This document shows, piece after piece, positions 30,064 through 55,927 of a stretch of DNA of 64,000 bases; the first letter of the stretch is position 1; each line of letters begins with the position of its first letter. A program made the position numbers and the translations under genes. This DNA comes from Candidatus Oxydemutatoraceae bacterium (GTDB lineage: Bacteria > Pseudomonadota > Gammaproteobacteria > Poriferisulfidales > Oxydemutatoraceae). The notes beneath the pieces were generated by a model, which saw only the letters and a program-made list of their open reading frames with translations, did no database searches and was not told the DNA's origin. The stretch lies in contig OZ244779.1 of the NCBI GenBank assembly GCA_965219575.1, positions 460,769 through 524,768 of the forward strand, given 5' to 3'.

Positions 30064-30125
30064 AAATAGAATTCAAAGAAATAAGGGTGCGTGTATTTGT
30101 GGATAACTATAGCGTAAAGACTTGA
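30060..30125 (+). pseudogene. Truncated 5' remnant of the DUF262 gene
   Basis: MKIEFKEIRVRVFVDNYSVKT* resembles the start of 31110 (MKIELREITVRKLVDGY) and has the same ATGA overlap with an MTase stop. Confidence 0.75.
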
Positions 30126-30135
30126 GAGCATAAAT

Positions 30136-33773: not shown

Positions 33774-33844
33774 TGCCTCTGATGCCGTCATAACGGACGG
33801 ACTTTTCACAAAACTATAGTGTTCTTACCCGGTAATACTTGATG

Positions 33845-34915
33845 TTAGAGTGATGTCGACATGTGCCTTATGATTGTTGTTCCCAAAGCCTTCGCCAGTT
33901 TCGGTGGCACTGCGTTTCCAATCATGCGTTGTATGGCGGTACGGTTCGGGATTTCTTCCTCGGAGCAGAATTCGTAATTTCTCGGAAAAGATTGCAGGAG
34001 CATGGCTTCTCTAAGTGTGATTGATCTGTCCTGTTCGGGATGCCCGAATCGCCCGTTTCCGATACCGGTGCAATGGGTTGTCATAGTCGGAGACGGCTTA
34101 TCCCACCACATTCTGCCGTAGTTGCAACCGTAGCTTTGTCCCGAGATTTTCTTATGGCAGTCCAATACCAAATTACTCGGCCAGTCATGTCGTGTACCGC
34201 CGTCATGCTTAGTCATACGCATGCGTTCTAGGTTCAAGGGTGAGAGGTCGGGAGCGCAGTGCATGCGATCCGTCGGATCTTCTTCGCCTGCTTTCAGAGG
34301 TGGCAGCTTTTCTATGGCTCTACGCACCGTTTCCCATTGCCCGTCATTTCGGTATGCTCCGGCGGGAACCGAAATTTTGCCTAAGCGAGAGGCTAGTAAG
34401 ACCCACCGTTTGCGTGATTGCGGGACACCGTATTCGCAACAATTAATAATTTTCCAGTCAACATGATATTTGTTCTTCGTTAAGGTTGCGAGAAATTGCT
34501 GAAACACAGCACTCCTTCGGCTCGCTAGTCCCGGAACATTCTCCATAGTAACGAATTCCGGTAATATCCCCTCTATATAACGACCGAAATGTTTCAGCAA
34601 ATCCCAGTCGTCATGAAGTTTTTTTTCTTTGGTGGTAAGTTGTGAAAACGGTTGGCACGGTGCACAACCGGCTAAGAGTCTATATTGTCCGGTTGCGAAT
34701 AGTCCGGCGACATCCGAATGGTGATTGCGAGTTAAATCCCACTCGTAAAACCGAGATCCCGGATTATTTGTTTCATAGGCATAGCGAGCCTGCCTGTCAA
34801 TATCGATGCCTGCCGCTACTCGGATACCCGCTTTACGCAATCCGTAGGTTAGACCGCCGGCACCACAAAAGAGATCTACGGCACTGATTTTCTTTGTAAT
34901 CGTTCTTTTAGACAT
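33845..34915 (-). CDS. C5 cytosine DNA methyltransferase
   Basis: DLFCGAGG, GCAPCQPFS, ENVPG, PQSRKR, IGNAVPP. Confidence 0.93.
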   Translation of the reverse strand: MSKRTITKKISAVDLFCGAGGLTYGLRKAGIRVAAGIDIDRQARYAYETNNPGSRFYEWDLTRNHHSDVAGLFATGQYRLLAGCAPCQPFSQLTTKEKKLHDDWDLLKHFGRYIEGILPEFVTMENVPGLASRRSAVFQQFLATLTKNKYHVDWKIINCCEYGVPQSRKRWVLLASRLGKISVPAGAYRNDGQWETVRRAIEKLPPLKAGEEDPTDRMHCAPDLSPLNLERMRMTKHDGGTRHDWPSNLVLDCHKKISGQSYGCNYGRMWWDKPSPTMTTHCTGIGNGRFGHPEQDRSITLREAMLLQSFPRNYEFCSEEEIPNRTAIQRMIGNAVPPKLAKALGTTIIRHMSTSL

Positions 34916-36683
34916 TAATGGATTTTATAATAGTTTCAATTCTTTGAATCTGCTTGCTTGCCTTTTCTTGAGCCTCTATATATTCTTTATATTGTTTCTC
35001 GGCTTGAGATATGATTTCTTGATATGTCGTTACCCTAATACCACTTTCTTGAAGAGTTCTTTTACCTGTTTCCATTTCATCGGGACTCTCCCAACCAATA
35101 GGAAATTCTCCTAGAATAATAACACCTTCCACGATGTTATCTTTTCTACCTGAGTCTTTTAATTCTTTGGAAACAGCACTCATATATTCGCGGATTTGTT
35201 TTGCTAAATCAAAATGGTTGAGTTTTCTTCCGGGTCTCTTAAGTTCTATCACCACATGTTGTTCGGGTGCTTTTTTGTATTGAATATCAATTCTTAATTC
35301 TTTTATCCTCTCTACTTCTTTGCCGGTTTTATCGTCAAGTTCTTTCCAACGTCTTTTTACCCGTTTTTCCAACTTTTGTTCTGCACAAGCTCGATCCCAG
35401 GAGGGATCTAATAACCACAAATGATCATATATATGTTCTTGAATAATTTTCTCTAGTTGCTTTTCATTTACATACTTTTGCAATTTATTTATGATTTCTA
35501 GACGCCCTTCGGTTATAGTGTAATAACTCATTGCTTCGATTTCATCTTGATTTCTGAACAATTCTGAGAATTGTTCTAAATTGTCTAAAGAAACATTGCT
35601 CAGAGCGTCTAAATTACCCCTCATACGCATTTGTTCTACAGCAGGTACGAAATGGCGAATTATATCTCTTTTCCTATCGCTGTCGTCAAGTGTTGCAGTA
35701 TATTTAAACAATCTATTGGTTATTTTTTGAGCATCTTGAGAAAGTTCGTCGTACCATTCTTTTATATCTTTATTTTTGCCAAGAATATCCTCTTTGGCTC
35801 TATCAGTTCTTAATTTGTGCCAATCTCCACATATATGTGTAACTAGACTCCTAATGCTTTCTTTAACATTTTGATAACGGTCGTCATTCTGATTTAAGTG
35901 TTGTCTGCCACTGGTTGCCATATCTTCTTCATCATCCCTGTCAAGATAATTTGCATGGATTTCTCCTATAAGATATTTTACGGCAACATCTCCCTTACCT
36001 AAGCTGTGTAATATATCCTCTTGGGCCAATCTACCGCGCATCATGATAGCGATATTATTAAAATTCTCGCCGCCGTCATCCATTAACTGGTTGACTTCGA
36101 ATACTGAACCAACCCATCCCGACAACCTGCTACCGTTATCTTTAATCAAATTTTTATCAATATGCTTATGCAAAGAATTGCAACAGGCTTTCTTAATTTC
36201 CGCTGCTTTGTCTTTATCTCCAAAAGTCCAGAGTTTTGAATTTTAGAGAAATAATTTCTGTCGCTTACGCTCACCTCGTCATTATTTACAAAAACCTTGA
36301 AATGATACTTATCTCCGATTATCGAGAATCTTCTAGATAGACGTTCTCTTAAATACTTATGTAGCCCCCTTGATTTATGTCGAAAACTAGTAAGTTCTAT
36401 TCTAGTGCCACAATCAAAGTTTATTTCACTATTTATTTCACTTTCATCTAGTTCATTCGGATAGTAATCGTTTTTTCCCTGAATTGCTTTTTTTATCTCG
36501 GGATACGACAATTCAAGCCCAATTTTCTTTCCTTCTTTAACCGAATACACCTTAACTTCATTAGCTATTGAGAATAGTGCCAATCTACCGATTCCTTTTC
36601 TCCCCATAACCGGTCGCTCATATTTTGGTGTTTTCTGTTCATTGGCATCCCGCCGCCGATAACCAATGGTGAGATATTTTTTT

Positions 36684-38031
36684 GGGAATTATATACTTAA
36701 ATACATAAATCAGTCTCGCTTCTCTAGCTTAAAGCGAGTATTTAGTTCCTTAGTTGTGGGGTTTTTGTTCTGATACTTTGTGCGATTAGGGGTAGGCTTT
36801 AGCAACACCTCTTTTATAGCTTCCTTAAAATCCCTTTCGTTTATTGGTTTATGATCTTTAGGGTTCATTTCTTAAACTTTCGCTTACTTCACTTGACAAC
36901 GCTGGCAACATACTTGTTGGCGATTGCAGCTGTGTTATGAAACCGCTCTAAGCTATCCACTTTAATTACTGCCGGTAAGTTCTTTATAACTTAATCGCTT
37001 ACCCAAAAAGCCTTTAGCTAGTGCTGCCATGCGCTCTAGGGTATCTACTTGACAGTTTCCTTTGTTCAATCTAAAAGAAAACTCATCTACATATCTCGGC
37101 AAATGCTTTATGCTGACATGATGATAAGTTCCGCTTAATCCGCGCTTAAGCAAAGCCCATACGCTTTCTATGCCGTTGGTATGTGTCATGCCATTGACAT
37201 ATTCCTTCACCAAATGATTGACTGTATCATGTTTGTAGAGCATACCACTGACACTCAAATAACCTGAATGTTCATCAGTATATAATTGGCTACCGATTTC
37301 TACATTGCTAGTTATTGCTCTGTGTAGTGTAGGTTGCTTGGTGTTTGCAACTGGCATCGCTTTAGTTCTACCGCATCTCTCGCGCATGCCGAGTATGATA
37401 GATTTCCCAACCACACCTCTGCCAGATTTCAACTGCTTGTTCTCGTGCTTGTTCCGTTCCTTACCACCAATATAGGTTTCGTCTATTTCCACTGAACCCG
37501 ATAGCTTAAAAGCACCTTGCTTGCATGCCTCACGGACACGCTGTAGCATAAACCAAGCCGACTTTTGAGTAATGCTTAATTCCTTTGATAGCTGTAAAGA
37601 CGATACACCTTTACGCGCCGTTAGAATTAAATAACAAACAATCGCCCATTTTGTTAAAGGCAATTTTGAAGCATGCATTAGCGTCCCAGTTTTGACCGTA
37701 AATGTGTATTGTGGACTACACGAATTACAGCAATAAGCGTGCTGGTGTTGCTTATCTCTACGCTTAACTATGTTATCCTCTGAATTGCATTTAGGACATA
37801 CTGGGGTGCCGTTCCAACGCACAGCTTCAAACCATTTACTCGCTTTGTATTCAGTGGAAAACATCTTTTGCAACTCTAGTATGCCGATTGTTTTAGCTCG
37901 TCTTTTCATGTTTATCTCCATAGGTTATTTGTGTATCATTGTGTCACAAAATTAAAATAAATAAAACCTTAAATAACCCTTGAATTATATAGCTTTCATT
38001 AATCAGTTATGTATTTAAGTATATAATTCCC
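36684..38031 (-). mobile_element. IS1595-family insertion sequence (1348 bp), transposase 36962-37921
   Basis: TIR GGGAATTATATACTTAAATACATAA; 8-bp TSD ATTTTTTT; zinc ribbon CPKC/CNSC, VEIDETYIGG, YTDE, HTNGIESVW. Confidence 0.93.
36710..36868 (-). CDS. Small basic passenger ORF (52 aa) within IS1595
   Basis: MNPKDHKPINERDFKEAIKEVLL...NPTTKELNTRFKLEKRD*, downstream of the transposase and inside the TIR. Confidence 0.4.
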   Translation of the reverse strand: MNPKDHKPINERDFKEAIKEVLLKPTPNRTKYQNKNPTTKELNTRFKLEKRD

Positions 38032-38537
38032 ATTTTTTTTGGATGTCATCCCTGTTCATACCGTGACCGTCGTCTTTGATTACGATTTTGTCTTCGCTGG
38101 TCAGTATATCGACTCGTTCGGCATCGGCATCCCATGCGTTTGCTACTAATTCTGCGAGAGCAGCCGGAAATCCGCTGTATAGTTTGACACCTAGGTCGTC
38201 AATAGTGCCTAGGCTTACTTTCATGTATAAAGGTTTTTGCTCTTCAGCCATAACAAAGTTTTATCCGATTCAAGGGTTCGCCATATTATAGTCTATATAT
38301 GAGACAACCTTCCGCTAAGCAAGCGTAAGCCATAAATTAGGATGTAATCCCAAGTAGATATGTAACTAAAAATGGGGTAATGTCTATGCCATGCAGGGTG
38401 CTCTGCTTCTACTGTTCTTTCGCTGTTTAGGACGCAATATTTAGATTTTGTAAGAGGTTACGCCACTTGCCCGACTGGAGCAAGTGGCAATTCTATGCAA
38501 CAAGTGGCAGTGCTATTTGTGCAATGACAACACTTTT

Positions 38538-39488
38538 TCAATCGGCGGTTGTATCTTTTAGCTGTTCAATCTCAGTGGCGGATATACCTATCACCTCGGA
38601 AATCTCGGAAATCTCGTAACCTTTTTGTAGCATGTTCAGAGCGATTTCGTGATTCCTTGCTGTTTTACCTTTGCCCATTCCATCGGCATGCCCTTCTCGC
38701 AAGCCTTTCTCATAAAAACCACGCTCTTCCAATCTATCATCCAACTTTTGTATCTTTCGCACCATAGAAACTAGGTCTAATCTCCCATCTTTTGATACCT
38801 TCTCTAAATGTTCTAGTATCATTTTTGTCTCTTTGTCTTGTGATAGGTGTGCTACTTCTTCGTCTGTGAGATCGGCCGCTTTCTTCATAATGTAACACCA
38901 TCTTTCCTTCATATCGACTAGTTCAAAGCAGCTTTCTTTGAGTTTACTCAATTCCACCATCACCAATCTGGAACGCTGATTGAGCTCGTCATGCGGCTGT
39001 CCATTCGAATACCATATCGGTTGGTGTATATAGTCCGGTGAGTCTTCGAATAAAACGAGATCTTCAAACATCAACACATAGGCTGGTCTCCCTCTGTAAA
39101 AAATCCCTCGCTTCGCTAGCACAAAGTAAGGCGGCACTCTATCCAAGAAGTGGTCTTCAATAACCGCCGGCATCTCCACATTGACATTTTTGCCACTACT
39201 CAATGTCACCTTAAAGTCCAATATGATATGCCTATTATTCGGTGCCACCGACATTATAAAATCATCTTCCCAGCGTAGTTTGTCGCCCGGTTGATTTTGT
39301 TTGATGGTCTTTTGCCTATGGGAGAATATTTTGTCTAATTCTCTAGGTCTTAGAATGAATACATCCGAGATCTTATCGGTAATAGGCAAGAAACATTCAA
39401 ACAAGGAGATGAGTACTTGTTTATTGCTCGTAAAAAACTTTTTGAAAACGGCATCTTGTGTAAGTGATAAATATTTAGTTTGTTCCAT
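38538..39488 (-). CDS. Rpn / PD-(D/E)xK nuclease-family transposase-like protein, possibly degenerate
   Basis: DAVFKKFF, ILDF..NVEMP (usually xEMQ), VELSK, ERWCY, EKGLREG...IALNMLQKG..ISEI tail; AGGAG RBS before ATG 39488. Confidence 0.8.
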   Translation of the reverse strand: MEQTKYLSLTQDAVFKKFFTSNKQVLISLFECFLPITDKISDVFILRPRELDKIFSHRQKTIKQNQPGDKLRWEDDFIMSVAPNNRHIILDFKVTLSSGKNVNVEMPAVIEDHFLDRVPPYFVLAKRGIFYRGRPAYVLMFEDLVLFEDSPDYIHQPIWYSNGQPHDELNQRSRLVMVELSKLKESCFELVDMKERWCYIMKKAADLTDEEVAHLSQDKETKMILEHLEKVSKDGRLDLVSMVRKIQKLDDRLEERGFYEKGLREGHADGMGKGKTARNHEIALNMLQKGYEISEISEVIGISATEIEQLKDTTAD

Positions 39489-39622
39489 GATAAATCTCCT
39501 GAGTTTTGATTGAAAACTCATAGTGTGGATCAATATTCAATAACCTGAAAAAACATTCCGATGAACGGTAGTAAATATCCGATAAACGGTGTGAGGTTGT
39601 ATAAAAACAGGCGGAATTATAT

Positions 39623-39668
39623 CGACCTTCCCTCATTTTTAGGACCGCCTGCAAAGTTAGTTTTCATG
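39623..39668 (+). mobile_element. IS3-type terminal repeat, inverted relative to 47231-47276
   Basis: 37/46 identity (counted by eye) to the reverse complement of 47231-47276; also similar to the IS end at 60721. Confidence 0.7.
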
Positions 39669-39897
39669 TTATTGTCTGCGCAAATACACTTTGAAATAAC
39701 ATAAGTATTAATAGTCATTCTGCACAATTGGTTATAGGCAAGATAACCAATTCAAGTGGTATTGCCATCATATATAAAAAGGCAAGAGTGACTGTAGAAA
39801 ACTGATGGATAGATTATAATGAAGTCCGCCACACAGTGCATTGTCAACGATGCTCGGTAAGCGCGGTAAAGTCTATAATTACTCAGCCTAAGAATGC

Positions 39898-41868
39898 ATG
39901 ATGGGAAAACGATTTGATACAGAACTAGAACAACTAGAGCATACATATAAATGGGCTATAGGTGTTGATGTATCAAAAATATCTTGCCTAATCAGAAACT
40001 CTTGTGGTCTTCCTCTGCTATCCGTTGGATCAGGAGGTTCTTTATCAGCTGCAGAGTTTCAAGCCCTTCTTCATAGAACTCTATTTTCGTCCATTGGGCA
40101 GGCTGTAACACCCGTTGAATTAATCTCAATGCTTCCGAGAAATAGGGAAGTTGCAGTTTGGTTTATGTCGGCTAACGGTGACAATATCGATATTTCCCGA
40201 GCCTTTAAGCACACGGCCTTGCATGAAATGAAGTTTGTCAGTGCATTGGTTTGCCGAAAAGAGAGCAAGCTACATAAGCTATCAACAGAATATGAATATA
40301 CAAAGTGTTTTCAATTTCCTATCCCTTCCGGGAAAGACGGTTTTCTTGCAACTAATTCGCTTCTTGTTTTCCTAGTTATCCTCTATAGAGCGTACGGTGA
40401 GGTAATTAAAGAAGTAAATAAGACAGTAGGTTTATCTAAAACACTAAACGCATTAATCAGAAAGTGCCTAGCAAATTTTAGTGGTCTTAAGGACATCAAA
40501 AAAAACGCAGCACCGCTATGTAATAAAAAATCCATACATGTTTTATACAGCCTTGACCTAAAACCTGCCGCATTGGATATTGAATCAAAATTTACGGAGG
40601 CGGGACTCATCTCTTCCCACTTGGCGGATATCAGAAATTTTGCCCACGGCAGACATAATTGGTTCTCAAAGTATGAGGCAGACAGTGGCGTTATTGCCTT
40701 ATCAACCAATAATGATTATAAAGTGATAGAAAAAACGCTTGCCTTATTACCGAATACAATTCCTAAGACTCATATTTCTTTTAATTACTTGGGTGGTGTT
40801 GAAGTAATTGTGGGAATAGTATTATCAATGCACTTGACAAATTGGCTTGGGAAAGAAAGAGGCATTGATCCGGGACGGCCTGGGATTGCGTCCTTTGGTT
40901 CAAAAATATATAGACTGGCAGCTAATCCAGGGTTTGTTACCTCAGTAAAGAAAAAGGAAGCAGCTATAGAAAGAAAAAGAAAATTAGCCCCTCTAAATTA
41001 TGGTAATAGGAGCGAGCAACTATGGGTTGATGCGCATAATAAATTTACCCGAAAGCTTGCAGCAGCGAATATAGGCGGGGTTGTTTTAGATTATGACGGA
41101 ACGGTTGTGGATAGCGATAAACGTTGGGATCCGCCGGGCGCAAGAATGATAAGTGAACTGATAAGATTGTTAGAAGAGAACATGGTTATAGGTTTTGCAA
41201 CAGGTAGAGGAGACTCAATAAGGGATGATTTGCAACAAGTTATTCCAAAGAAGCTTTGGGGTAAGATATTGATAGGTTACTATAATGGTGCTGAATTAAA
41301 ACACTTGTTAGAAAATACAGACTTGAGAACTGCCTCTGACCCTATACCGGAACTAAAGTTACTATCTACTAAATTAAAAAAGAATATTTTTTTACATTCA
41401 GTTGCTGACTTTAAGCAAAAAGAATATCAACTAACCGTAAAATCGAAAGAAAACAAACCTCTTTCGGAGACATTTTTATGGGACTTGGTTCAAGATGAAT
41501 TTCATCAATATCTGGAGCATAAAGGAGACGAGCTTTCTGAGTTTTCTGGGCATAGAGCAAAAATTCTTCGCTCCAGTCATTCAGTAGATATAATTGCAGG
41601 GGATGTATCTAAACTATCTGTAGTAAAAGCAATCAGACAAAATATACAGGAAAATTCTGAGATCTTGAATATTGGAGATAGAGGGAGATGGCCTGGCAAT
41701 GATGCCGAACTTCTCAAAGAAACTCTGTCTTTAAGTGTTGATGAGGTTTCGTATTCTTCAGAGACTTGTTGGAATCTGTGTCCAGCCGGTATCCGAGGCG
41801 CACAAGGCACCCTTTATTATCTTAGCCGATTGAAAAGAAAAAATGGAACCATGAGGTTTTTTCCGTAG
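39898..41868 (+). CDS. Tandem SIS (sugar isomerase) domains fused to a HAD-family (IIB-like) phosphatase
   Basis: VGSGGS, SANGDN, ESKFTEAG, RNFAHGRH (SIS); LDYDGT, ATGRG, SK, IGDRG..GND (HAD motifs I-IV). Confidence 0.75.
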   Translation: MMGKRFDTELEQLEHTYKWAIGVDVSKISCLIRNSCGLPLLSVGSGGSLSAAEFQALLHRTLFSSIGQAVTPVELISMLPRNREVAVWFMSANGDNIDISRAFKHTALHEMKFVSALVCRKESKLHKLSTEYEYTKCFQFPIPSGKDGFLATNSLLVFLVILYRAYGEVIKEVNKTVGLSKTLNALIRKCLANFSGLKDIKKNAAPLCNKKSIHVLYSLDLKPAALDIESKFTEAGLISSHLADIRNFAHGRHNWFSKYEADSGVIALSTNNDYKVIEKTLALLPNTIPKTHISFNYLGGVEVIVGIVLSMHLTNWLGKERGIDPGRPGIASFGSKIYRLAANPGFVTSVKKKEAAIERKRKLAPLNYGNRSEQLWVDAHNKFTRKLAAANIGGVVLDYDGTVVDSDKRWDPPGARMISELIRLLEENMVIGFATGRGDSIRDDLQQVIPKKLWGKILIGYYNGAELKHLLENTDLRTASDPIPELKLLSTKLKKNIFLHSVADFKQKEYQLTVKSKENKPLSETFLWDLVQDEFHQYLEHKGDELSEFSGHRAKILRSSHSVDIIAGDVSKLSVVKAIRQNIQENSEILNIGDRGRWPGNDAELLKETLSLSVDEVSYSSETCWNLCPAGIRGAQGTLYYLSRLKRKNGTMRFFP

Positions 41869-41875
41869 AGAGAAG

Positions 41876-43006
41876 ATGAATAGAGAACTCGGTTTTGAAA
41901 ATTTAGAGAAGATTATGGGATGGGATGATGAAGATGCCCAGAAAGAATCCGATTGGCTTCGTTTTATGTCTAAATATAAGTACGATGATTATAGGGGATA
42001 TCTTGTTGGTGCAAGGTTTATTGAAAGTCTAGTTATCTGGCTTCAGCAATTTGAATCTAAGGATCAAAAAGCGGCTTATGAATATATAAAAGAAAACTTA
42101 ATTTATATCGGTCCTGCTGAAATACAACGACTTATTGGGAAATTTTTTTATGAAGAAGTGCAAAAAAATCTGAGAGAAAAAGTTGCCAAAACTCTGGGTG
42201 TTCCAGAGTATATGGTTTGGTCTTCAGAGAGAAGCGTGGATGAGTTTAAATCTGAAATTCGGAGAACATTGTTTATGGGGTTGAGTGATGGCGCACGTTT
42301 GGACTCCTTCAGAAGAGCTAATGCAGACATATCGAATGAGCAAGTTGTAATAACTACAGAGATTAATAATATCAAATGGGAGGACTTGCTTAAAGAGCTT
42401 GCCGATGACTCTAAAGATAAAGGTAAAGACAAGGAAAAACAAAAATTTGAGAGGGTTTATTTAATTGATGACTTTACTGCTTCTGGAACTAGTCTGATAA
42501 GGGAAGAAAAAAAAGAACTTAAAGGAAAATTAAAAAAGTTTGCCGATGCTCTAAAGCAAGCCCAAGAAAATTTAACAGAGCGTCTTTTTGTAAATAGATT
42601 TCAAATAATAGTCCACCATTATATTGGCACTTATCAAGCGAAGGAAAAAATTGAACAACTATATAATGAACCTTGGATTAAAAAAGAATTGGATATACCC
42701 GATATTCGATTTTCGTTTGGTATGCTTCTTCCTAAAGATATAAGGCTTATCCGCTCTTCCGAAGAGAAATTCGCAGATTTATGTAAAAAATATTACGATC
42801 ATTCTATATACGATGAGCACTTTAGAAAAAGTGGAGCTCCAGACGGAAAATTTGGATATGCTGAATGTGGCATCCCTCTAATCCTATATCACAATACACC
42901 CAATAATTCTCTTTCATTATTGTGGGCAGAAACTAAGGGGGATGAAGGGCATACTATGAAGCCCTTATTTAAAAGAGGACAACGTCATAAGGAATGGTCG
43001 GGATAA
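41876..43006 (+). CDS. Phosphoribosyltransferase-like protein (PRTase-CE-like)
   Basis: PRPP-loop LIDDFTASGTS; GLSDGAR; FGY..C..PL..YHNTPNNS. Confidence 0.7.
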   Translation: MNRELGFENLEKIMGWDDEDAQKESDWLRFMSKYKYDDYRGYLVGARFIESLVIWLQQFESKDQKAAYEYIKENLIYIGPAEIQRLIGKFFYEEVQKNLREKVAKTLGVPEYMVWSSERSVDEFKSEIRRTLFMGLSDGARLDSFRRANADISNEQVVITTEINNIKWEDLLKELADDSKDKGKDKEKQKFERVYLIDDFTASGTSLIREEKKELKGKLKKFADALKQAQENLTERLFVNRFQIIVHHYIGTYQAKEKIEQLYNEPWIKKELDIPDIRFSFGMLLPKDIRLIRSSEEKFADLCKKYYDHSIYDEHFRKSGAPDGKFGYAECGIPLILYHNTPNNSLSLLWAETKGDEGHTMKPLFKRGQRHKEWSG

Positions 43007-43010
43007 AATT

Positions 43011-44942
43011 ATGATTAATCCCTTCAAGAAAAGAGCCACTGAGTATTTGCGTGATGATGTGGCATTTTTGTCTGTCATTGCTCCGGAACCGTTGCATACA
43101 TTTTTTGAAAAGTATGCTAAAGAAGGGAAACTATATGACCGTCTTAGTATGATTGTTGGAACACCAGGAAGTGGCAAAACGATAATCTCACATCTACTAC
43201 AATATCAAACTGTTCAAACACTATTAGCAAATCCTCTTGCTGATCAATATAAACGATTAATTTATGCTCTCAGAGAATGTGGAATAATTGAAGTTTCAGA
43301 AAATACATTTTCTAGTACATTCGTTGGTTGTCGAATCCCGATGGAATCTGAATATAGAGACTTTTGGGAATTGCCCTATGACGACAATATCAAAATGGGA
43401 TTGCTCAAGTCCTTTTTACAGGCGCGCGCCATGCTTTCATGGTTAAAAAACATTGACATTGATCCTAATGTTGATCTTTTATCAGTAAAAATTCAGTTGC
43501 GTGAAGGTGCCGGTGTTGCCCAAAACAGTCTAGGGGGAAATGATGGCAAAAGCCTATTTGAAAAGGCTAGGGACATTGAGTCCTCTATATACGAAATAGA
43601 AACCGCTTTGGTGCCGCCCTCGGAAGAGAAATTGAGTAGTAACATTGCATCAGGATCTTATCGTCCTTTTGACGCAATAGAGTGTTTTGTTGTCAATAAA
43701 ACGGATGGTCCTGCTTCGCTAAGACCTATGGTAATGCTTGATGATATTCATACCTTACATCCTAAACAATTATCAAATTTAGTTAATTGGTTAGCAAAAA
43801 GAGAGATGAAAATTGCTAGATGGATATTTATGCGACTGGATACAATAACACCTAAATCTATCTTTTTAGGGGAACTACATACAAACTATGATGTTGAATA
43901 TGAATCACCCATCAAGCAGAGCAGAGAAATCACTTATATTTGGTTGCAAGATCTAGAAAATAGAAAAGAAGCACGATCCGAATTTCAAAAAATGGCACAA
44001 ACTATGGCAAATAAATATCTACAACGCATGCCAATATTTGACCGCCAAGGGTTAACGGATTTTTCCGGTCTTCTTAACAAAAAAGTTGAGCCTATTAGCG
44101 ACCCTAAAATGAACAAACTGAAAAATAGGGTTGAAAAATTTGTCTCTAAAATAAATATCCATGAACAAATTTATCAAAAATTTGAAAAGGATATTGAATC
44201 GTATTTTTTAGGTGCAAAAACTATTGATAACTCAAAGGACGTAAAGTTGGCAATGCTTTACATTATGCTGAATAGATACCTAAAAAGAGTGCCTCAAAGG
44301 AGCTTATTTGATCAACCAGAATTCAAGCCGATTAAACCTAGTTCTGGTTTAGTAGATGGTGCAAAGATATTTCTTATGCATGAGTATGATCGCCCATACT
44401 ATTATGGGGTAGATACTGTTTGTCGTGGGAGTTCCGAAAATGCAGAGCAGTTTCTGCAATTATCTAGCCGGCTTGTGGACAAGATGGAAACAAGGATAAT
44501 TAGATCTAAGCCCGCGAACTTGTCCCCAGATTATCAGCATAAATTACTTAAAGAGCGCGCAGAAGAGATAGTTAAAGAATGGGATTTTCCAAGGAGCCGT
44601 GAAGTTAAAAAGTTATGTAAACTTATGGCTAAAGAATGTTTGGAAAAGAGCCGCGAACCCAACGCTCCTTTGAATGGAGGGGCAAATGCTATTGGTATTC
44701 CACGGGATGAGTTTGAAAAAATACTATCGGAATCGCAATATTCAGAGTTGAGAGAAATTTTAAAGTTTGGAATGGCATATAATGCAATTACTATGAAGCC
44801 CAGGCACTCTACCAAAAATAAATTATGGACTCTAATAGAACTGTCTGGGCCGATGATTATTTTTTCTGGTCTGACATTATTTAGAGGTGGGTTTTTAGAG
44901 AGAACTGTAAACGATTTATTAAGCTGGCTTAAAGAAGAGTAA
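43011..44942 (+). CDS. P-loop NTPase, ORC/CDC6- or STAND-like
   Basis: N-terminal NPF, Walker A GTPGSGKT, Walker B VMLDDIH, C-terminal helical region (YYYG..SSEN). Confidence 0.72.
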   Translation: MINPFKKRATEYLRDDVAFLSVIAPEPLHTFFEKYAKEGKLYDRLSMIVGTPGSGKTIISHLLQYQTVQTLLANPLADQYKRLIYALRECGIIEVSENTFSSTFVGCRIPMESEYRDFWELPYDDNIKMGLLKSFLQARAMLSWLKNIDIDPNVDLLSVKIQLREGAGVAQNSLGGNDGKSLFEKARDIESSIYEIETALVPPSEEKLSSNIASGSYRPFDAIECFVVNKTDGPASLRPMVMLDDIHTLHPKQLSNLVNWLAKREMKIARWIFMRLDTITPKSIFLGELHTNYDVEYESPIKQSREITYIWLQDLENRKEARSEFQKMAQTMANKYLQRMPIFDRQGLTDFSGLLNKKVEPISDPKMNKLKNRVEKFVSKINIHEQIYQKFEKDIESYFLGAKTIDNSKDVKLAMLYIMLNRYLKRVPQRSLFDQPEFKPIKPSSGLVDGAKIFLMHEYDRPYYYGVDTVCRGSSENAEQFLQLSSRLVDKMETRIIRSKPANLSPDYQHKLLKERAEEIVKEWDFPRSREVKKLCKLMAKECLEKSREPNAPLNGGANAIGIPRDEFEKILSESQYSELREILKFGMAYNAITMKPRHSTKNKLWTLIELSGPMIIFSGLTLFRGGFLERTVNDLLSWLKEE

Positions 44943-44944
44943 AC

Positions 44945-46087
44945 ATGACTGTCTCCTCTGGAGGGAATGGAAATAGATGGGAATTATGTATCGACCACTA
45001 CGACGATGCAGTGTCCGAATTTTTTGAGCAACACTTTTCGGAAGAACATAGGGAGTGCCTTTTCATTGGAAGCGTAGGATTTGATCCTAGAAGTAACATC
45101 ATAGTTAAAGAATTATGCTCTATTATGGAAGAGCGTTTACATATTATCTTACTGGAAGAGATACGTTCTAGCTCCGATTTAGAGTTAGTAAAAAGAACAA
45201 AGGGAAATATAGCCGAAGCTAAAAACCTATCTTCCCAAACCAAAGTTTTAGAAATAAATATATTTTCAGAACATGATGGGGCTGTAGTTGGAGGTATCGG
45301 TATTCTCAATCGCATAAAAGAAATAGATATTACTAACTATGCTGATATTGTTATTGATATGAGTGTATTTTCTGTTGGTGTCAGCTTCCCTCTCGTTAAA
45401 TATATTTATGAATGGGCAAATAACGCTAAAAAGCCCGTTAATGTTCATTTGACATTTACTTCTAATAACGAACTAGATTCTTACATATCTGAATCTTCGA
45501 CTTTAACTGATTATGCAACCAATGTTAGAGGATTCCCAACCCCCAATTTGTTGGGGGCAGGAGAAAAAGCGAAACTTTGGCTTCCTCTAATGTCTACCGA
45601 TAAAGAGAGGATTTTGAGTAAAATTTATGATAGAACAAAACCGCATGATATCTTTCCTATTTTTCCATTTCCATCAGAAGATCCTAGAGAAGGAGACAAA
45701 CTTGCCGCTATTTATTATAGGGAAGAGTTAGGAAGCCTTTGGGAAGTTGACCCACAAGATTTTATATATACAGACGAAGAAAGACCTCTGGATATTTACC
45801 GAACTATTATGAGAATTAATGAAGACCGTGAACTGGTATTTAAGACATTTGGCGGATCAATGCTAATTTTATCTCCTCTAGGTAGTAGAATGCCAGCTAT
45901 TGGTATGTTGATGGCTGCACTAGAAGGCGGGTTTCCTGTCGTGTATGTTGAGACATTAAATTATCATGTCGAGGATTGGGGAAAAGTTGATGAAACATCA
46001 CAGGAGGAGAATATGGAAATTGCCCATTTTTGGCTTTACGGGGAAGCCTATTATAATGACAAAAAGAAATTTGAATCCTTGAAATAA
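44945..46087 (+). CDS. Hypothetical protein, possibly tandem Rossmann (CARF-like) domains
   Basis: GFDPRS, IVIDMS, ILSPLGSRMPAIG, VVYVE; fold assignment is inference only. Confidence 0.55.
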   Translation: MTVSSGGNGNRWELCIDHYDDAVSEFFEQHFSEEHRECLFIGSVGFDPRSNIIVKELCSIMEERLHIILLEEIRSSSDLELVKRTKGNIAEAKNLSSQTKVLEINIFSEHDGAVVGGIGILNRIKEIDITNYADIVIDMSVFSVGVSFPLVKYIYEWANNAKKPVNVHLTFTSNNELDSYISESSTLTDYATNVRGFPTPNLLGAGEKAKLWLPLMSTDKERILSKIYDRTKPHDIFPIFPFPSEDPREGDKLAAIYYREELGSLWEVDPQDFIYTDEERPLDIYRTIMRINEDRELVFKTFGGSMLILSPLGSRMPAIGMLMAALEGGFPVVYVETLNYHVEDWGKVDETSQEENMEIAHFWLYGEAYYNDKKKFESLK

Positions 46088-46098
46088 ACAAGTGGATT

Positions 46099-47148
46099 AT
46101 GAATAGATACCTACCAAGCGTTTATGGCACAGGCTTAGTTTCGCTAGACATTATTATAAGTATGCGCCCCGAAGAGCATTATCACTGGTCTGGTGGTACA
46201 TGTGGCAATGTTCTGACCATATTAAGTTATTTAGGATGGGAATCTTTTCCTATCGCTCGGTTAAATTCCGATGCTGCCTCAGTTCGTGTGAGAGCAGATA
46301 TGGAACGCTGGAATGTTCGCTTAGATTATGCCGAGCAATCACCTACGACCAGTACTCCGATTATTGTCCAAGAGAATTCGATCAATAGGCAGGGGCTATC
46401 CGTTCACAAATTTCACTGCAGACAGTGTCCTAGATGCGGCGCAGGGCTTCCAAATCACAAGGCAGTTACTCTTTCGGCTACTGAGCGGATAAAAGATGAT
46501 GTCTCGCAAGGAACCCTTTTCTTTTTTGATAGAACCTCTCCCGGTGCCATTAATCTTGCAAAACACTTCAAACGTATTGGGGCAATTATATTTTTTGAAC
46601 CATCTGCCAAGTCGGACTTAAGACAGTTAAAGCAGGCTCTAATGCTTGCAGACATCGTTAAATATTCGGATAAAAGATATCTTGAGCCAATGTCGGATAT
46701 CAAAGGTGCCACTTCTGCTTTCCTTGAGATTCATACTCTGGGGAGTGAGGGTTTGCGATATAGAACCCATGCCTCAAGCAGACTTAGTAGAAGATGGAAG
46801 AGATTACGGACTTTTCAGGCACGGCAATTCAAAGATAGCTGTGGTTGTGGTGATTGGACAAGTGCTGGTTTAATATCAAAGCTTTGTAATAGAAAAGCAG
46901 CACGCTTGAGAGGGGTATCAGAAAATTCCGTTATTACCGCACTAAATTATGGACAGGCTTTAGCGGTGTGGAACTGTGATTTTGAAGGTGCTAGGGGAGG
47001 AATGTATCAAGTAAAAAAACTTACATTTAAGAAACATATTCAACAAATACTTAAAGCTGGTGTTCTAAAAAGAGGAAATCGTACAAAAACACTAGAAAGC
47101 GAAATTTTTGATAGTGAAAGTTGTTGCTGCTACAGCTTAAGTGCATAA
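46099..47148 (+). CDS. PfkB/ribokinase-family carbohydrate kinase
   Basis: GTGLVSLD, GGTCGNV, IVKYS, TLGSEG, DSCGCGD anion-hole motif; CxxCxxC insertion. Confidence 0.82.
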   Translation: MNRYLPSVYGTGLVSLDIIISMRPEEHYHWSGGTCGNVLTILSYLGWESFPIARLNSDAASVRVRADMERWNVRLDYAEQSPTTSTPIIVQENSINRQGLSVHKFHCRQCPRCGAGLPNHKAVTLSATERIKDDVSQGTLFFFDRTSPGAINLAKHFKRIGAIIFFEPSAKSDLRQLKQALMLADIVKYSDKRYLEPMSDIKGATSAFLEIHTLGSEGLRYRTHASSRLSRRWKRLRTFQARQFKDSCGCGDWTSAGLISKLCNRKAARLRGVSENSVITALNYGQALAVWNCDFEGARGGMYQVKKLTFKKHIQQILKAGVLKRGNRTKTLESEIFDSESCCCYSLSA

Positions 47149-47171
47149 GCCTTTTGATTGGCGGGAGTAGA

Positions 47172-47276
47172 AAACATTCTCCCCAAATTTAGTACTAATA
47201 CTAAAGTTAGATTCCCCGATTAACTGGCAGCATAAAAACTAACTTTTTAGACGGACCTAAAAATGGGGTAACGTCA
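47172..47276 (+). mobile_element. ~105-bp MITE made of fused IS3 left and right ends
   Basis: ACATTCTCCCCAAATTTAGTACTAATACTAAAGTTAG (left end) joined to AAAACTAACTTT...AAAAATGGGGTAACGTCA (right end). Confidence 0.8.
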
Positions 47277-47376
47277 TTCCGAGCGGTAATTTCTCAACAG
47301 CCACCCTCGGCAACTGCCCCATGCAAAGGCTTTACATTTATAATATGTGTTAGGGTTTTGCACGGGATAGCGTCGA

Positions 47377-50300
47377 TTGAATATTTTGGTTTTGAGGATT
47401 TTAGCGAAAGTTCTAGCGATATTCTTTTTGGGGGCAGGCATGCAGTCGGTTACCGCACAATCACAGGAAATGGGCGATCCGCTATACGATCGGCAATGGC
47501 ATCTTGAAAATACCGGGAGAAATACCAGCCAAGGCATTCCCGGCGAGGATATCAATGTAGAACCAGTTTGGAATACAACGCTTACGAATGGGGTAAAAAT
47601 AAGAGGGCAAGGTACATACATTGCCATAGTAGACGGAGATTTACCCATTGCAAGGCAATCTACTATAACCGAGCTGTTGGCTCACCCGGATCTAATAGAA
47701 AATATATCAACTCGGCACAGCGTTGATTATTATCCTTCGGTGATCGATGACGATAGTCATGCTACCGCCGTAGCGGGTATTGCTGCGGGGCGTGGTTATA
47801 ACGCAATAGGTGTTAGGGGTGTGGCACCTTGGGCAAAAGTTTATAGCTTGAATATTTTAGGATTACCTAACGGTAATAGGAGTATTTCGAGAATTATTGA
47901 GAGGTCGGTTGGCTTAGATGCAATGGTTCGCCACACCACAATAACCTCGGTTTCCAATAACAGTTGGGGGAGTCTGGATCCCTTTAGACCGTCCGGTGAC
48001 GCTCTTGTCGCATGGGAAATGGCAATAGAAACCGGCATTAGGAATGGGTTCCATGGCAAAGGAACAGTCTACACTTGGGCCGGCGGAAACGGGAGTTGTA
48101 TTAGCAGAAGAATAGCGTCTAACCGCTATGAACAAGTTTGTAACATAGACACTTCAAATTATGACGGCAGGGCAAAGTATCATGCAGTCGTTGCCGTATG
48201 TTCGGTGGATAATCAAGGAAGACATCTTGCGTTCTCGGAACTTGGTGCCAATTTATGGGTTTGCGCCCCATCGCGAGGGATTACTACAACTTCTAGAGGT
48301 AGGAGGGTCATTATTAGAGATAGGACTATTATTTCAACCTATAGGCATGACTTATACACGACATCGTTCGGCGGAACCTCTGCTTCAACTCCAATGGTCA
48401 GCGGTGTGGTGGCATTGATACGACAAGTCAACCCGAGTCTTAGCTGGCGCGATGTAAAATTAATTCTGGCTAATTCCGCAAGGCAAAACGACCCCGAGGA
48501 CGATGACTGGGCACAAGGTGCCGTAAAGTATGGTTTATCCGGCGATGAGGACGAGGCGCGATATCACTTTAACCACAAATATGGATTCGGTGTTGTCGAT
48601 GCACAAAAGGCGGTTGAACTGGCGCAAGGGTGGATCAATCTCCCTCCCGTAGCAACAACATATACCGAAGTAATCAACCGCAATATAGACCTTAGGCTAA
48701 GTGCCGATAATCTCGTTATTAATAGCAGTATATCCGTGCAGTCCGATATCAATTTTATCGAGCATGTGCAGGTTCCTATCGGATTAACACACCCTCTAAT
48801 CCAAGATTTAAGCGTTGAATTGACCTCACCTTCGGGTGTTACTTCAGACCTAATAATACCATCCACTTATCCCATCAGTAGTACTAGTTCATACGCAATC
48901 GGTGTTAGCGGCTTTTGGCGTTTCGGTTCAAGCGCGCATTTAGGCGAAGATCCGTCGGGGGTTTGGAGGTTAAGATTTGAAAGCACTAGGCCTACAACCG
49001 GCACTTTGATTACATGGGGAGTTAGAATACGCGGCTATCAAATAAAAATGGATGCTACCTCCGCCGTCGGGTTATCAGGCAAAAATGTAGTCGAAACTCC
49101 GCTGCCCTTGTCTTTGATCGGTGCAAGTTGGGAAGAAGATTTGCAGCCCGAAGATTTTAGGCTGAAAAATGCGCCGACAGGATTGCGCATTGCAAGTGTA
49201 AGTCGTACTTCCGATACACAGGTTGCGCTGAATCTTGCGTTGGATGGGAGGCTTGCGAGGGACTACCTCTTTCAAGTCGAAGCAACGACAAGTACGGTTC
49301 CAAACATCAGAAACTCACTTATTAGCGACGACATATCAATCGTATTGGAAGTGCCCGAAGCACCGCTGCTAGAAATTACTGCTCAACCGGAGCAAGCGAT
49401 AGAAGCGGGAAATAGCGCAGAGGTAGAAGTCTCGGTGGCAGATAATAATTTTGATGTCGGCGATCGTGTCACATTGACGGCGGAGTCATCGAGCCGAACG
49501 ATTGTGTCGGTGACGACATCGGCGAAAACCGATGAGATAACGACTAATACGAGCATTACCTTCATGCTGACCGCTGTGCAAGGTGGAGAAGCGATGGTTA
49601 CATTTACCGCAACCGATAGTAGAGGATTGAGCGTTAGCAAGACGATATTGGTACGTGTTGATGCAATGCCGACCGGTCGTGTCGGCATAACACCGGACAG
49701 CGATGATAGATGGTTGCTACATGGGACTTCAACGATAATGGATGCAAACGGCATCGCCGAGAAAAATTATCGGTGGTATAGAAACGATCGAATAATAAGT
49801 GGAGCAACCGGTGATAGCTATGAGATACCGGACAATAGAAATGGACGAGCCACAGGAACACGCTATAGATTAGAAGTATCGGTTGTGGACAATATAGGAC
49901 AATCGGTGACCACTCAATCCAATACGATCACGGTCGCAAACGAAGCACCCGTTATTGATGGACAGATTACTGCTTTGCCGTCTCCGGTGGAGGAAGGTCG
50001 GGAAACAGTAATCACTGTTCCCGCCGGAGATGCAAACTACGATAGCTTGACTTATAGCTGGAGTGCGACCGGTGAGCATAGCGGAATAAATATATCCGGA
50101 AACCCGGCAACATTGATCATTCCGCCCGACTTTGTAGATGCTGCATCCACCGAGACAACGGCGAACTTGGAAGTAGTGGTGGATGACGGATCTGCCGCCA
50201 CGACAGGAATGGTGTCGGTGGTGGTACACAAGATAAATAATGGTTCTTTGACTTTAAGAATTTCCATAGCGGTAGGAAGTCGTGCGACAACATTAACGGC

Positions 50301-54049: not shown

Positions 54050-54070
54050 TTTGGCAACTCCTCGGATTTT

Positions 54071-55915: not shown

Positions 55916-55927
55916 ACCTTCTCCTAA

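Follow-up and report, generated by a model that had tools for sequence, protein, structure and literature searches.

The window analysed here, a stretch of 64,000 nucleotides, contains at 39898..47148 a five-gene unit that moves between distant bacteria and joins a small-molecule sensor of CRISPR type to sugar-phosphate enzymes, a phosphoribosyltransferase (PRTase) and an ATPase. We consider this cassette a candidate immune or plasmid-competition system. In our best reading, to which we give a probability of about one half, it is a conflict module directed against phages or plasmids, self-contained and spread horizontally, whose own enzymes would make and remove the ligand of its CARF protein. 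Its fixed core consists of a PRTase-CE protein, an ORC/Cdc6-like ATPase and a tandem-CARF protein. The features are as follows.

39624..39668, no strand: left arm of an inverted repeat, 45 nt, 82% complementary to 47231-47275
39898-41868, + strand: g1, double SIS (aa 1-~380) and HAD-IIB phosphatase (aa ~390-656), 656 aa, from Pfam and structure
41876-43006, + strand: g2, PRTase-CE phosphoribosyltransferase-like protein with an intact PRPP-binding loop, 376 aa, from Pfam and PADLOC
43011-44942, + strand: g3, ORC-CDC6-like AAA+ ATPase, 643 aa, from Pfam PF24389
44945-46087, + strand: g4, stand-alone tandem-CARF protein (PADLOC label CARF6), 380 aa, from PADLOC and structure
46099-47148, + strand: g5, PfkB-family kinase with a four-cysteine site, 349 aa, from Pfam PfkB
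47231..47275, no strand: right arm of the inverted repeat, 83 bp past the g5 stop codon

A preliminary description had reported five co-directional AT-rich genes with 2–11 bp gaps in a restriction-modification (R-M) island, and the ORFs, the GC content and the neighbours all agree with it. The ORF listing of the window gives five co-directional + strand ORFs, with intergenic gaps of 7, 4, 2 and 11 bp in order from g1 to g5. GC content is 0.36–0.39 across 40–46 kb, compared to 0.47–0.51 across 6–28 kb. The R-M island comprises two EcoRI-type methylases and a GmrSD/HNH restriction enzyme at 29.1–32.2 kb, and Vsr, a C5 methylase and a broken BbrUII/HgiDII-like restriction enzyme, adjoining an IS1595 transposase, at 33.4–37.9 kb. 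The cassette itself is bracketed by the 45-nt inverted repeat, the longest among 24 inverted pairs in 38000–48500, whose core occurs in seven copies in the genome versus none for a reversed-pattern control. Possibly, this repeat marks the boundary of the cassette.

The same description had read g1 as a double SIS domain fused to a HAD phosphatase, g2 as PRTase-like, g3 as a large ORC-like P-loop NTPase and g5 as a PfkB kinase with a Cys-rich insertion, and these assignments were borne out. The HAD-IIB part of g1, of Cof type, matched Pfam Hydrolase_3 (aa 395–608; 30.5 bits, cut-off 20.9), while the double SIS domain was detected by structure only. An AF2 model (pLDDT 90.8) searched with Foldseek against the PDB had NagB-II as its top match (8fdb_B; E 3.9e-13, TMt 0.72) and the GlmS isomerase domain and AgaS as the next ones, which gives a phosphosugar isomerase fold of GlmS/NagB-II/AgaS type. 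Across 25 sequences, the SIS motif GSGGS (44–48) and the HAD motifs D398-x-D400-x-T402, T435-G-R, K572 and D594...D602 were invariant. The kinase g5 matched Pfam PfkB (35.6 bits, cut-off 25.8), and a profile search of the PDB returned ketohexokinase (7.8e-10) and then fructokinases. G32-G33...N37 and the catalytic G251-D252 were invariant across 25 sequences, as were the cysteines C110, C113, C342 and C344. Judging from this pattern of an inserted CxxC plus C-terminal cysteines, the four cysteines probably form a zinc site.

In g2, Pfam PF24390 (PRTase-CE) scored 87.3 bits (cut-off 27), and the PADLOC model PRTase_III-A matched with E 2.7e-17. The PRPP loop VYLIDDFTASGTS lies at residues 193–205, with D198, D199 and G204 invariant across 25 sequences. 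Similarly, g3 matched Pfam PF24389 (ORC-CDC6-like) over aa 3–522 with 43 bits (cut-off 27), and this family was also present in the nearest ESM Atlas clusters. Both its Walker A motif (G50-x-P-G-S-G-K56-T) and its Walker B motif (D244-D245) were invariant in 25 sequences. Within the sensitivity of tblastn, this subfamily of g3 was found only alongside g4.

The earlier suggestion that g4 is CARF-like, made from its SPLGSR motif (residues 310–315), holds according to both the PADLOC profile and structure. Its description as an unknown Rossmann protein does not, since g4 fits the model of a catalogued CARF family over its full length (PDLC01916; E 2.6e-82, profile positions 3–343 of 345). The 20 best rows of a wide VIA-align search with the AF2 model (pLDDT 82.6) comprised 19 CRISPR-associated CARF proteins and VC1899 (Z 8.7–14.3). 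The leading match was Can1 (6sce; Z 14.3, rmsd 3.4), with 233 aligned residues spanning both domains. Among the best 150 of 819 representatives of g4-related clusters, nearly all were 190–400 aa long, with a single exception of 572 aa. The number of invariant positions in g4 (44 of 380) exceeds what a pure sensor would need, and hence g4 could itself be an enzyme, for instance a ring nuclease.

Relatives of g4 were present in 284 species genomes. All five genes occurred in 71 of the 80 g4-relative loci that were fetched, in the order 1-2-3-4-5 in 66 of these and 5-1-2-3-4 in five, and contig ends interrupted the cassette in seven of the nine incomplete loci. Because the same five genes co-occur in 71/80 related loci, the arrangement recurs far above chance, and the expectation that it is conserved as a unit was confirmed. 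The g2-g3-g4 triad was invariable, being contiguous and in the same order also in plasmid copies, and plasmid copies at 23–27% identity still retained g1–g4. Two loci had the cassette without g1, and four cassettes contained fragmented genes, which indicates some decay.

Its distribution is that of an accessory, mobile cassette: 2 of 41 related genomes had it, and a quick tree of g3 showed phyla intermixed, with 15 label changes versus a minimum of 9. The tblastn matches of g3 and of g4 fell in an identical set of 19 out of 72,556 plasmids, nine of them conjugative, while 50,697 phage records gave no match. In three loci the cassette lay within a plasmid transfer region, with the coupling-protein gene on one side and virB/trb genes on the other. 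Pfam was run on 140 of the 280 listed flanking ORFs, and 76 matched: 22 were integrase, transposase or conjugation families, 24 defence- or toxin-antitoxin-linked families and 11 metabolism or transport, all raw counts from our own sorting of the Pfam families. Known defence systems among the neighbours were DISARM, Gabija, AbiE and R-M; PADLOC identified DrmB and DrmC (DISARM), GajB, PLD_Helicase and PDC-S01 among 12 hand-picked flanking ORFs.

These neighbours bear on whether the cassette might be ordinary metabolism carried on mobile elements, such as a catabolic or biosynthetic route that handles an aminosugar, an opine-like Amadori compound or a natural product of nucleoside type. Pairs of a PfkB kinase and a double-SIS deglycase (FrlD/FrlB) process fructosamines. 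By analogy, g5 and the double SIS domain of g1 would act like FrlD and FrlB, with the CARF-like and ATPase proteins as regulators. In line with such a role, rhizobia and agrobacteria are common among the hosts, plasmid copies included, and in RefSeq the labels of the cassette genes do not go beyond HAD hydrolase, hypothetical protein and carbohydrate kinase. However, no transporter or transcription factor was found to travel with the cassette in the fetched loci and the scanned flanking ORFs, in agreement with the preliminary description. Moreover, PRTase-CE, ORC-CDC6-like and CARF are families of conflict systems, the hosts come from at least ten phyla and from many kinds of habitat, and mobile-element and defence genes, rather than metabolic ones, predominate among the neighbours. 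We therefore regard a metabolic role as very improbable.

How might a conflict module of this composition work? The mechanism proposed earlier, with a signal made by kinase and phosphatase, an ATPase sensor and a CARF reader, fits the families assigned here. We suggest that the phosphosugar pair, i.e. the SIS-HAD fusion and the PfkB kinase, serves the triad, with a NADAR N-glycosidase as an occasional addition. The ATPase g3 would be an ATP-driven switch that answers an invader and contacts the PRTase, which in turn would form an N-(5-phosphoribosyl) compound from PRPP and a base or an amine. The GlmS-type SIS domain might then rearrange this compound and the fused HAD domain dephosphorylate it; the kinase would re-phosphorylate the product and NADAR, if present, would cut the glycosidic bond, so that the ligand is both made and erased. 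The tandem CARF, as a Can1-like pseudo-dimer, would bind this ligand and gate the ATPase-PRTase pair, whose runaway use of PRPP or nucleotides could arrest the cell or the invader. No terminal effector (nuclease, pore or protease) is recognisable in the cassette, and hence the toxic step is a guess.

Complex prediction points weakly to contact between g2 and g3. The pair from locus L057 scored 0.37, versus 0.01 for the best control. Among solved complexes, 58 of 80 reach this mark, as do 2 of 110 mismatched pairs, but scores of ≤0.60 came from just 7 of the 80 solved complexes and from both of the passing mismatches. At least 84% of the contacts agreed between the runs, and partner pLDDT was ≥82. 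A natural g2-g3 fusion was found once, as a 1019-aa ORF in locus L059, and a search of longer g2 relatives turned up only one, unrelated-looking chimera.

Alternatively, the cassette might be an effector pathway, in which the CARF protein senses an external nucleotide (from an invader, another immune system or stress) and the four enzymes are the weapon. The PRTase would consume PRPP or split nucleotides, SIS-HAD would irreversibly destroy ribose phosphate, and the kinase working against the phosphatase would burn ATP, with nucleotide or energy depletion leading to abortive infection. Encoded in one operon, kinase and phosphatase could indeed form a futile cycle, the SIS-HAD fusion suits consecutive steps on one phosphosugar, and there is no other effector in the cassette. 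Yet, two loci (L083 and L085) have lost PfkB, which would break the futile cycle, and kept the remaining genes. Single-enzyme depleters are known, and a five-enzyme route to depletion would be elaborate in comparison. Furthermore, Csm1, Cmr2 and SMODS had no match in the genome of the window (98.9% complete), and the module is independent of Cas10 and CD-NTase. Cas10 and SMODS are the two families of messenger makers that were searched, and their lack of a match, together with the strictly joint inheritance of the five genes, argues for a ligand of the module's own making. An effector pathway thus appears unlikely to us. Precedents for PRTase effectors do exist, which favours this pathway as well as the main reading: PRTase-CE is listed with retron type III-A1 (PMC13712802), and PRTase domains are described as toxins in ShosTA and PsyrTA and also as retron effectors (bioRxiv 10.1101/2022.05.11.491447). 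Because its Pfam family is listed with retron type III-A effectors, by analogy g2 may be an effector as well as a signal maker.

The occasional NADAR gene raises another explanation. It adjoins the cassette in 4 of 80 genome loci and in four of the eight plasmid loci examined, and in two plasmids it occupies the place of a missing PfkB. NADAR domains are ribosyl N-glycosidases that take the place of Macro domains as removers of ribosyl adducts in DarT-DarG-like systems, according to PMC9503650, and their presence beside the cassette points to N-ribosyl chemistry, in keeping with the main reading too. Conceivably, the ORC-like ATPase loads the PRTase onto DNA, where it phosphoribosylates DNA, RNA or protein of an invader or competing plasmid, while NADAR and the sugar-phosphate enzymes take the adduct off the molecules of the cell itself or recycle it, in the way that DarG or NADAR counters DarT. 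The cassettes inside plasmid transfer regions are compatible with this, and ORC/Cdc6-type ATPases are read as DNA sensors in bioRxiv 10.64898/2026.10.19.760177. However, such a scheme leaves the ligand-binding CARF, the phosphosugar isomerase and the sugar kinase without a role; NADAR accompanies few of the close loci and is absent from the window, and neither a DNA-binding nor a nuclease domain was detected in the cassette. This makes modification of macromolecules distinctly doubtful. The cassette also differs from DarT-DarG-like systems with NADAR, in which NADAR is likewise accessory to an enzyme of N-ribosyl bonds, in that its writer is a PRPP-using PRTase instead of an NAD+-using ADP-ribosyltransferase, and NADAR is optional.

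In agreement with the preliminary description, which recognised no characterised system here, PADLOC v2.0.0 names none for the five-gene set: g2 and g4 match component models only (PRTase_III-A, CARF6), and g1, g3 and g5 match no model. We found no description of the cassette in the literature searched. Several known systems share parts of it. The ancillary CARF proteins of type III CRISPR (Can1, Can2, Csm6, Card1, ring nucleases) have the CARF fold of g4, and Can1 likewise has two CARF domains in one chain. In contrast, g4 carries no fused effector domain, none of the 140 scanned flanking ORFs was a cas gene, the genome lacks a Cas10 match, and the likely source of the ligand is a PRTase with sugar-phosphate enzymes rather than a cyclase. 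The PRTase effectors of retron type III-A belong to the same Pfam family as g2, which matches their PADLOC models. Unlike these retrons, ShosTA and PsyrTA, the cassette has no reverse transcriptase, DprA-like antitoxin or ncRNA (no Rfam match in 28–58 kb of the window), and g2 is partnered instead by an ORC-like ATPase and a CARF protein.

The Ter-associated module shares the combination of PRTase and HAD phosphatase; its PRTases and HAD phosphoesterase are read, in PMC7824862, as making a threat-signalling nucleoside or nucleotide derivative. The cassette differs by lacking TerB, TerC, TerD and TelA, by having CARF as its sensor, and by the added isomerase and kinase. Like BREX BrxC/PglY and other conflict-related ORC/Cdc6-like ATPases, g3 is the central AAA+ ATPase of a multigene locus, here a candidate for defence. 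BrxC is of the ORC/Cdc6-like ATPase class, but g3 matched no PADLOC model at E ≤0.01, BrxC models included, and the cassette contains no other BREX gene. Finally, in the ADP-heptose pathway, GmhA (SIS), the HldE kinase (PfkB) and GmhB (HAD) work one after another to convert a ketose phosphate to an activated sugar phosphate, and the classes phosphosugar isomerase, PfkB kinase and HAD phosphatase are common to the cassette. Yet, g1 has a double SIS domain of GlmS/NagB-II type instead of a single one of GmhA type, its HAD domain is of type IIB, a PRTase stands at the place of the nucleotidyltransferase, and the context is one of mobile and defence genes, not LPS genes.

The g1-g5 cassette occupies 39898-47148 of the window as five co-directional open reading frames, exactly where the preliminary description had placed them, with intergenic gaps of 7, 4, 2 and 11 bp from g1 to g5. 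It is AT-rich, as claimed there, with a GC content of 0.36-0.39, and of 0.37-0.41 at 30-40 kb, versus 0.47-0.51 at 6-28 kb. Methylases, restriction enzymes and a Vsr gene were found around it, in line with the reported position inside a restriction-modification island.

Features of the cassette and its island (window coordinates; strand where noted)
29086-32192: two tandem EcoRI-type adenine methylases (325 aa each), then a GmrSD_N + HNH restriction enzyme, which matches PADLOC REase_II PDLC03418 full-length
33363-33809: Vsr, intact
33845-34915: C5 methylase, intact
34908-36607, -: BbrUII/HgiDII-like type II restriction enzyme, frameshifted into two overlapping ORFs of 421 and 153 aa
36962-37921: IS1595 transposase, just upstream of the split restriction enzyme
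38366-38387: partial third repeat copy, on the far side of the Rpn/PDDEXK_2 gene
38538-39533: Rpn/PDDEXK_2 gene
39624-39668 and 47231-47275: 45-nt inverted repeat arms, 82% complementary, bracketing g1-g5 exactly
39898-41868, +: g1, double SIS + HAD, 656 aa
41876-43006, +: g2, PRTase-CE, 376 aa
43011-44942, +: g3, ORC-CDC6-like ATPase, 643 aa
44945-46087, +: g4, tandem CARF, 380 aa
46099-47148, +: g5, PfkB kinase, 349 aa
47377-50637: S8 subtilase, 1086 aa, with P-domain and Ig-like repeats, downstream of the cassette
52348-57181, -: four co-directional genes

Our results show that the five genes are conserved as a unit. A g4 profile search of a one-genome-per-species collection found relatives in 284 species genomes, and 71 of the best 80 loci, which we fetched, carry all five genes. 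Their order is 1-2-3-4-5 in 66 loci and 5-1-2-3-4 in five, all from Acidobacteriota. Of the nine incomplete loci, seven are truncated at contig ends, and two (L023, L064) truly lack g1. Decaying copies with fragmented genes occur in L012, L015, L040 and L055. Among 72,556 plasmid records, g3 and g4 each match the same 19, and none of 50,697 phage records was matched. In the eight plasmid loci that we examined, some with g4 identity down to 24%, g1-g4 are always kept, and g2-g3-g4 form a contiguous triad of constant order around which g1 and g5 shift position. Two of these plasmids (L083, L085) lack g5 and have a gene for the N-glycosidase NADAR ahead of g1. Such a gene adjoins the cassette in 4/80 genome loci and 4/8 plasmid loci.

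The cassette is present in the window's genome and one congener, and absent from the other 39 relatives searched. A quick IQ-TREE phylogeny of g3 (71 rows) mixes phyla, and places the window copy beside a Porisulfidus MAG, with Chryseolinea (Bacteroidota) joining next. In three loci of Rhodobacterales and Kiloniellaceae (L028, L034, L082), the cassette lies within the transfer region of a conjugative element, with relaxase/coupling-protein genes on one side and virB/trb mating-pair genes on the other. If the cassette acts against plasmids, it would be a tool of plasmid competition at such sites.

An alternative explanation might be that the cassette performs plain metabolism and merely travels on mobile elements. 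The neighbouring genes point in the other direction. We scanned 140 of the 280 listed flank ORFs (two per side of L001-L040; Pfam, E <=1e-8) and sorted the 76 that matched by our own judgement. Only 11 belong to ordinary metabolism or transport, versus 22 integrases, transposases or conjugation genes and 24 members of defence- or toxin-antitoxin-linked families. The latter include AbiEii (three), DNA methylases (three), PLD (four), patatin (two), NADAR (two), PglZ, Schlafen and HipA, among others. No cas gene was detected by Pfam among the 140 ORFs. PADLOC matched nine of 12 hand-picked flank ORFs, including DrmB and DrmC of DISARM, GajB, PLD_Helicase and PDC-S01.

The permuted-order cassettes of four Acidobacteriota loci (L012, L014, L020, L022) lie directly downstream of DISARM DrmB and DrmC. 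The PLD-family and 609-aa genes upstream of Acidobacteriota cassettes, considered as a possible extra effector, were rejected because they are these DrmC and DrmB genes of a neighbouring DISARM system.

Profiles and structural models bear out the domain anatomy originally assigned to the five proteins. In g1, Pfam recognized only the HAD-IIB phosphatase domain (Hydrolase_3, aa 395-608, 30.5 bits versus a cut-off of 20.9), and the NCBIfam model HAD-SF-IIB scored 32.7 bits, under its cut-off of 41.8. The profile match and motifs I-IV with the nucleophile Asp identify a HAD-IIB (Cof-type) enzyme, in which D398, D400, T402, T435, K572, D594 and D602 are invariant, as is GSGGS at 44-48. In an AlphaFold model with 25 homologues as input (pLDDT 90.8), a double SIS domain with a GlmS-like fold spans the first ~380 residues. 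The top Foldseek match was NagB-II (8fdb_B, E 3.9e-13, TMt 0.72), and the GlmS isomerase domain, AgaS and archaeal glucosamine-6-P deaminases were the other leaders (TMt 0.64-0.76 across about 345-375 columns). No Pfam SIS profile matched g1 even at E 5, and a PDB sequence-profile search gave only weak HAD matches. An hhalign comparison with the genome's own GlmS was not significant (probability 2.8%, E 0.016); this weak alignment pairs the phosphate-loop motifs GSGGS with CGTS and SANGDNID with SQSGETAD.

PRPP-binding loops consist of a hydrophobic run, two acidic residues and then a Gly/Thr-rich stretch. This loop is intact in g2 (VYLIDDFTASGTS; D198, D199 and G204 invariant) and, together with a match to Pfam PRTase-CE (87.3 bits versus a cut-off of 27), identifies g2 as a type I PRTase. 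The protein g3 is an ORC-CDC6-like AAA+ ATPase (Pfam PF24389, 43 bits versus a cut-off of 27) with invariant Walker A (GTPGSGKT, 50-57) and Walker B (D244-D245) motifs. No significant match to g2, g3 or g4 came from the PDB sequence-profile search, and extending Pfam to E 5 added nothing for the C-terminal half of g3, the N-terminal parts of g1 and g2, or g4. An ESM Atlas search with g3 returned its own family only.

The genes g2 and g3 form a single 1019-aa ORF in one Entotheonella MAG chromosome (L059, 6925-9984), the only fusion among the 80 loci. A 775-aa chimera from the search for fused g2 forms looked unrelated and was set aside. Complex prediction for the g2-g3 pair of locus L057 scored 0.37, versus 0.01 for the best control, with at least 84% of contacts agreeing between runs and partner pLDDT of at least 82. 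This is weak support, as the mark was reached by 58/80 solved complexes and 2/110 mismatched pairs, and scores <=0.60 by only seven of the 80 solved complexes plus both passing mismatches. The natural fusion and this prediction are thin evidence that g2 and g3 may contact each other.

PADLOC matched g4 nearly from end to end with CARF6 PDLC01916 (E 2.6e-82, profile positions 3-343 of 345) and also with PDLC01910 (E 4.8e-82); Pfam gave no match to g4. The CARF6 label presumably derives from the CARF classification of Makarova 2020. The model of g4 (pLDDT 82.6) contains two Rossmann-like domains, and this CARF fold together with the full-length profile match assigns g4 to the CARF superfamily. 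A wide VIA-align search against representatives gave 19 CRISPR-associated CARF proteins and VC1899 as the 20 best rows (Z 8.7-14.3), led by Can1 with both domains aligned (Z 14.3, rmsd 3.4, 233 residues). Foldseek matches in the PDB (tandem USP-like domains, cation-chloride transporter tails, KaiC) were set aside in favour of this search because they were poor globally (TMq 0.18-0.28). The canonical CARF motif comprises glycine/serine loops after strands 1 and 4 of the Rossmann-like fold. In g4, loops at predicted strand ends read GxGFDPRS (43-50), D138-x-S-x-x-S-x-G145 and S310-P-L-G-S-R315. The last is the SPLGSR motif that had suggested a CARF-like fold; it is indeed the loop that follows strand 4 in the second CARF domain. 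Profile searching of the full database gave 819 representative clusters for g4. The best 150 are almost all 190-400 aa long, most of them 350-390 aa, and none carries a fused effector; a separate search for fused forms of g4 found none either.

The g5 protein is a PfkB carbohydrate/nucleoside kinase (Pfam, 35.6 bits versus a cut-off of 25.8) with invariant G32, G33 and N37 (GG motif) and G251 and D252 (catalytic Asp in G-x-G-D). Its previously described cysteine-rich insertion corresponds to four invariant cysteines, contributed by an inserted CxxC and by the C-terminus. No equivalog- or substrate-level model matched g5. Judged by their conserved residues, the four enzymes and the ATPase all look catalytically competent.

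The cassette shares with type III CRISPR and CBASS, in our reading, a small ligand read by a CARF protein. It falls outside both systems because it lacks Cas10 and a CD-NTase. The window's genome (one contig, 98.9% complete) gave no match to TIGR02578 or TIGR02577 (Csm1, Cmr2), although controls matched, and CD-NTase/SMODS PF18144 matched neither this genome nor the five proteins. Nor does it belong to BREX, in which BrxC occurs with PglZ, PglX and BrxA/B: PADLOC gave no match to g3, and PglZ and PglX are missing from the cassette. In uniting isomerase, kinase and phosphatase, the cassette resembles the ADP-heptose pathway. The predicted Ter nucleoside-metabolite module, like the cassette, pairs a PRTase with a HAD enzyme, according to a passage in PMC7824862. 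Retron type III-A has the PRTase-CE effector family in common with the cassette, whereas the cassette has no reverse transcriptase: no RT domain was found in the five genes or scanned neighbours, and no msr/msd ncRNA by Rfam at 28-58 kb. The g2 protein matches PADLOC PRTase_III-A models, and "III-A" in this name probably means retrons, not CRISPR, because a table in PMC13712802 lists PRTase-CE families as domains accompanying retron type III-A.

PADLOC v2.0.0 has models for g2 and g4 only and none for the whole system, so that no already named system was matched. Our full-text literature searches gave no description of the g1-g5 set; Makarova et al. 2020, on CARF classification, or Burroughs et al. 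2015 may already cover the neighbourhood of this CARF family. RefSeq names the proteins "HAD hydrolase family protein", "hypothetical protein" (three) and "PfkB family carbohydrate kinase". As their Pfam and PADLOC family names show, others have catalogued the parts, and we rate the whole system as predicted at most, not characterised. Its interpretation as a defence candidate was upheld by each refutation test that could be run.

The cassette has a tandem CARF protein without an effector domain, and no cyclase; its five genes are strictly co-inherited and lie among mobile-element and defence genes. Double SIS enzymes of the GlmS/NagB-II/AgaS type isomerise or deaminate amino-sugar phosphates. 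PRTases use PRPP to form N-(5-phosphoribosyl) bonds, HAD-IIB enzymes remove phosphate from sugar phosphates, and PfkB kinases add phosphate to sugars or nucleosides. According to a passage in PMC9503650, NADAR domains act as ribosyl N-glycosidases. Because the families of g1, g2, g5 and NADAR thus share N-ribosyl/amino-sugar phosphate chemistry, we favour a circuit in which the module would make and remove its own phosphoribosyl-derived ligand, g4 would read this ligand, and the ORC-like ATPase g3 and the PRTase g2 would act as switch and effector. PRTase domains are toxins in ShosTA and PsyrTA and effectors in retrons, as described in bioRxiv 10.1101/2022.05.11.491447. The cassette might instead be a writer-eraser system for phosphoribosylation of macromolecules, in which the CARF protein would not have the role of ligand reader that it has in the favoured circuit.

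The weakest point of the self-made-ligand model is the missing terminal effector. Possibly, the cassette is instead an effector pathway whose action drains nucleotides or energy. In its most specific form, to which we assign a probability of about 0.3, the self-made-ligand circuit would be the first CARF-based immune pathway with a PRPP-derived messenger built by a PRTase rather than an oligoadenylate made by a cyclase. The messenger would be an N-ribosyl or rearranged ribulosyl-amine phosphosugar, tailored by SIS-HAD and PfkB and erased by NADAR, and the tandem CARF protein, on reading it, would gate the ORC-like ATPase and PRTase pair.

To our knowledge, nearly all known CARF sensors receive cyclic oligoadenylates from type III CRISPR. 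Here, a whole CARF family is tied to its own enzyme set without a cyclase. If the proposed pathway is real, its messenger would form a chemical class that is new among bacterial immune second messengers. Should the enzymes make the ligand, they would open a new branch of immune-messenger chemistry and offer a defined regulatory setting for PRTase effectors, which also occur in retrons and ShosTA. Since the 7.3-kb cassette is compact and self-contained, with many testable catalytic residues, heterologous expression and metabolomics can address this question directly.

Scans for promoters (20 promoter-like sites versus 23.3 expected) and terminators (5 versus 5.0 expected) were at chance level, and Rfam gave no match within 28-58 kb of the window. 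The stretch is present, whole or in part, in 12 sequencing runs (Logan contigs) from seven studies, for which no type is recorded; no RNA run was listed as containing it.

The bracketing repeat was found in none of the 89 fetched loci. Its 31-nt core occurs seven times in the window's genome, versus zero for the control. The Rpn-like protein has 20 matches in the genome, and such a match occurs within 2.5 kb of three of the five other repeat copies. The ends of an Rpn-associated mobile unit may flank the cassette. Elsewhere in the island, the BbrUII/HgiDII-like locus looks like a decaying restriction-modification system with an orphaned methylase. The S8 subtilase is probably unrelated to the cassette, because it is not conserved beside it in related loci. 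The four genes at 52348-57181 encode two 288-aa proteins without a match, a 614-aa HATPase protein that matches PDC-M33A, a PADLOC candidate (E 7e-25), and a 417-aa protein whose SspD/DndC-like matches are weak; they may represent a further defence candidate of this island.
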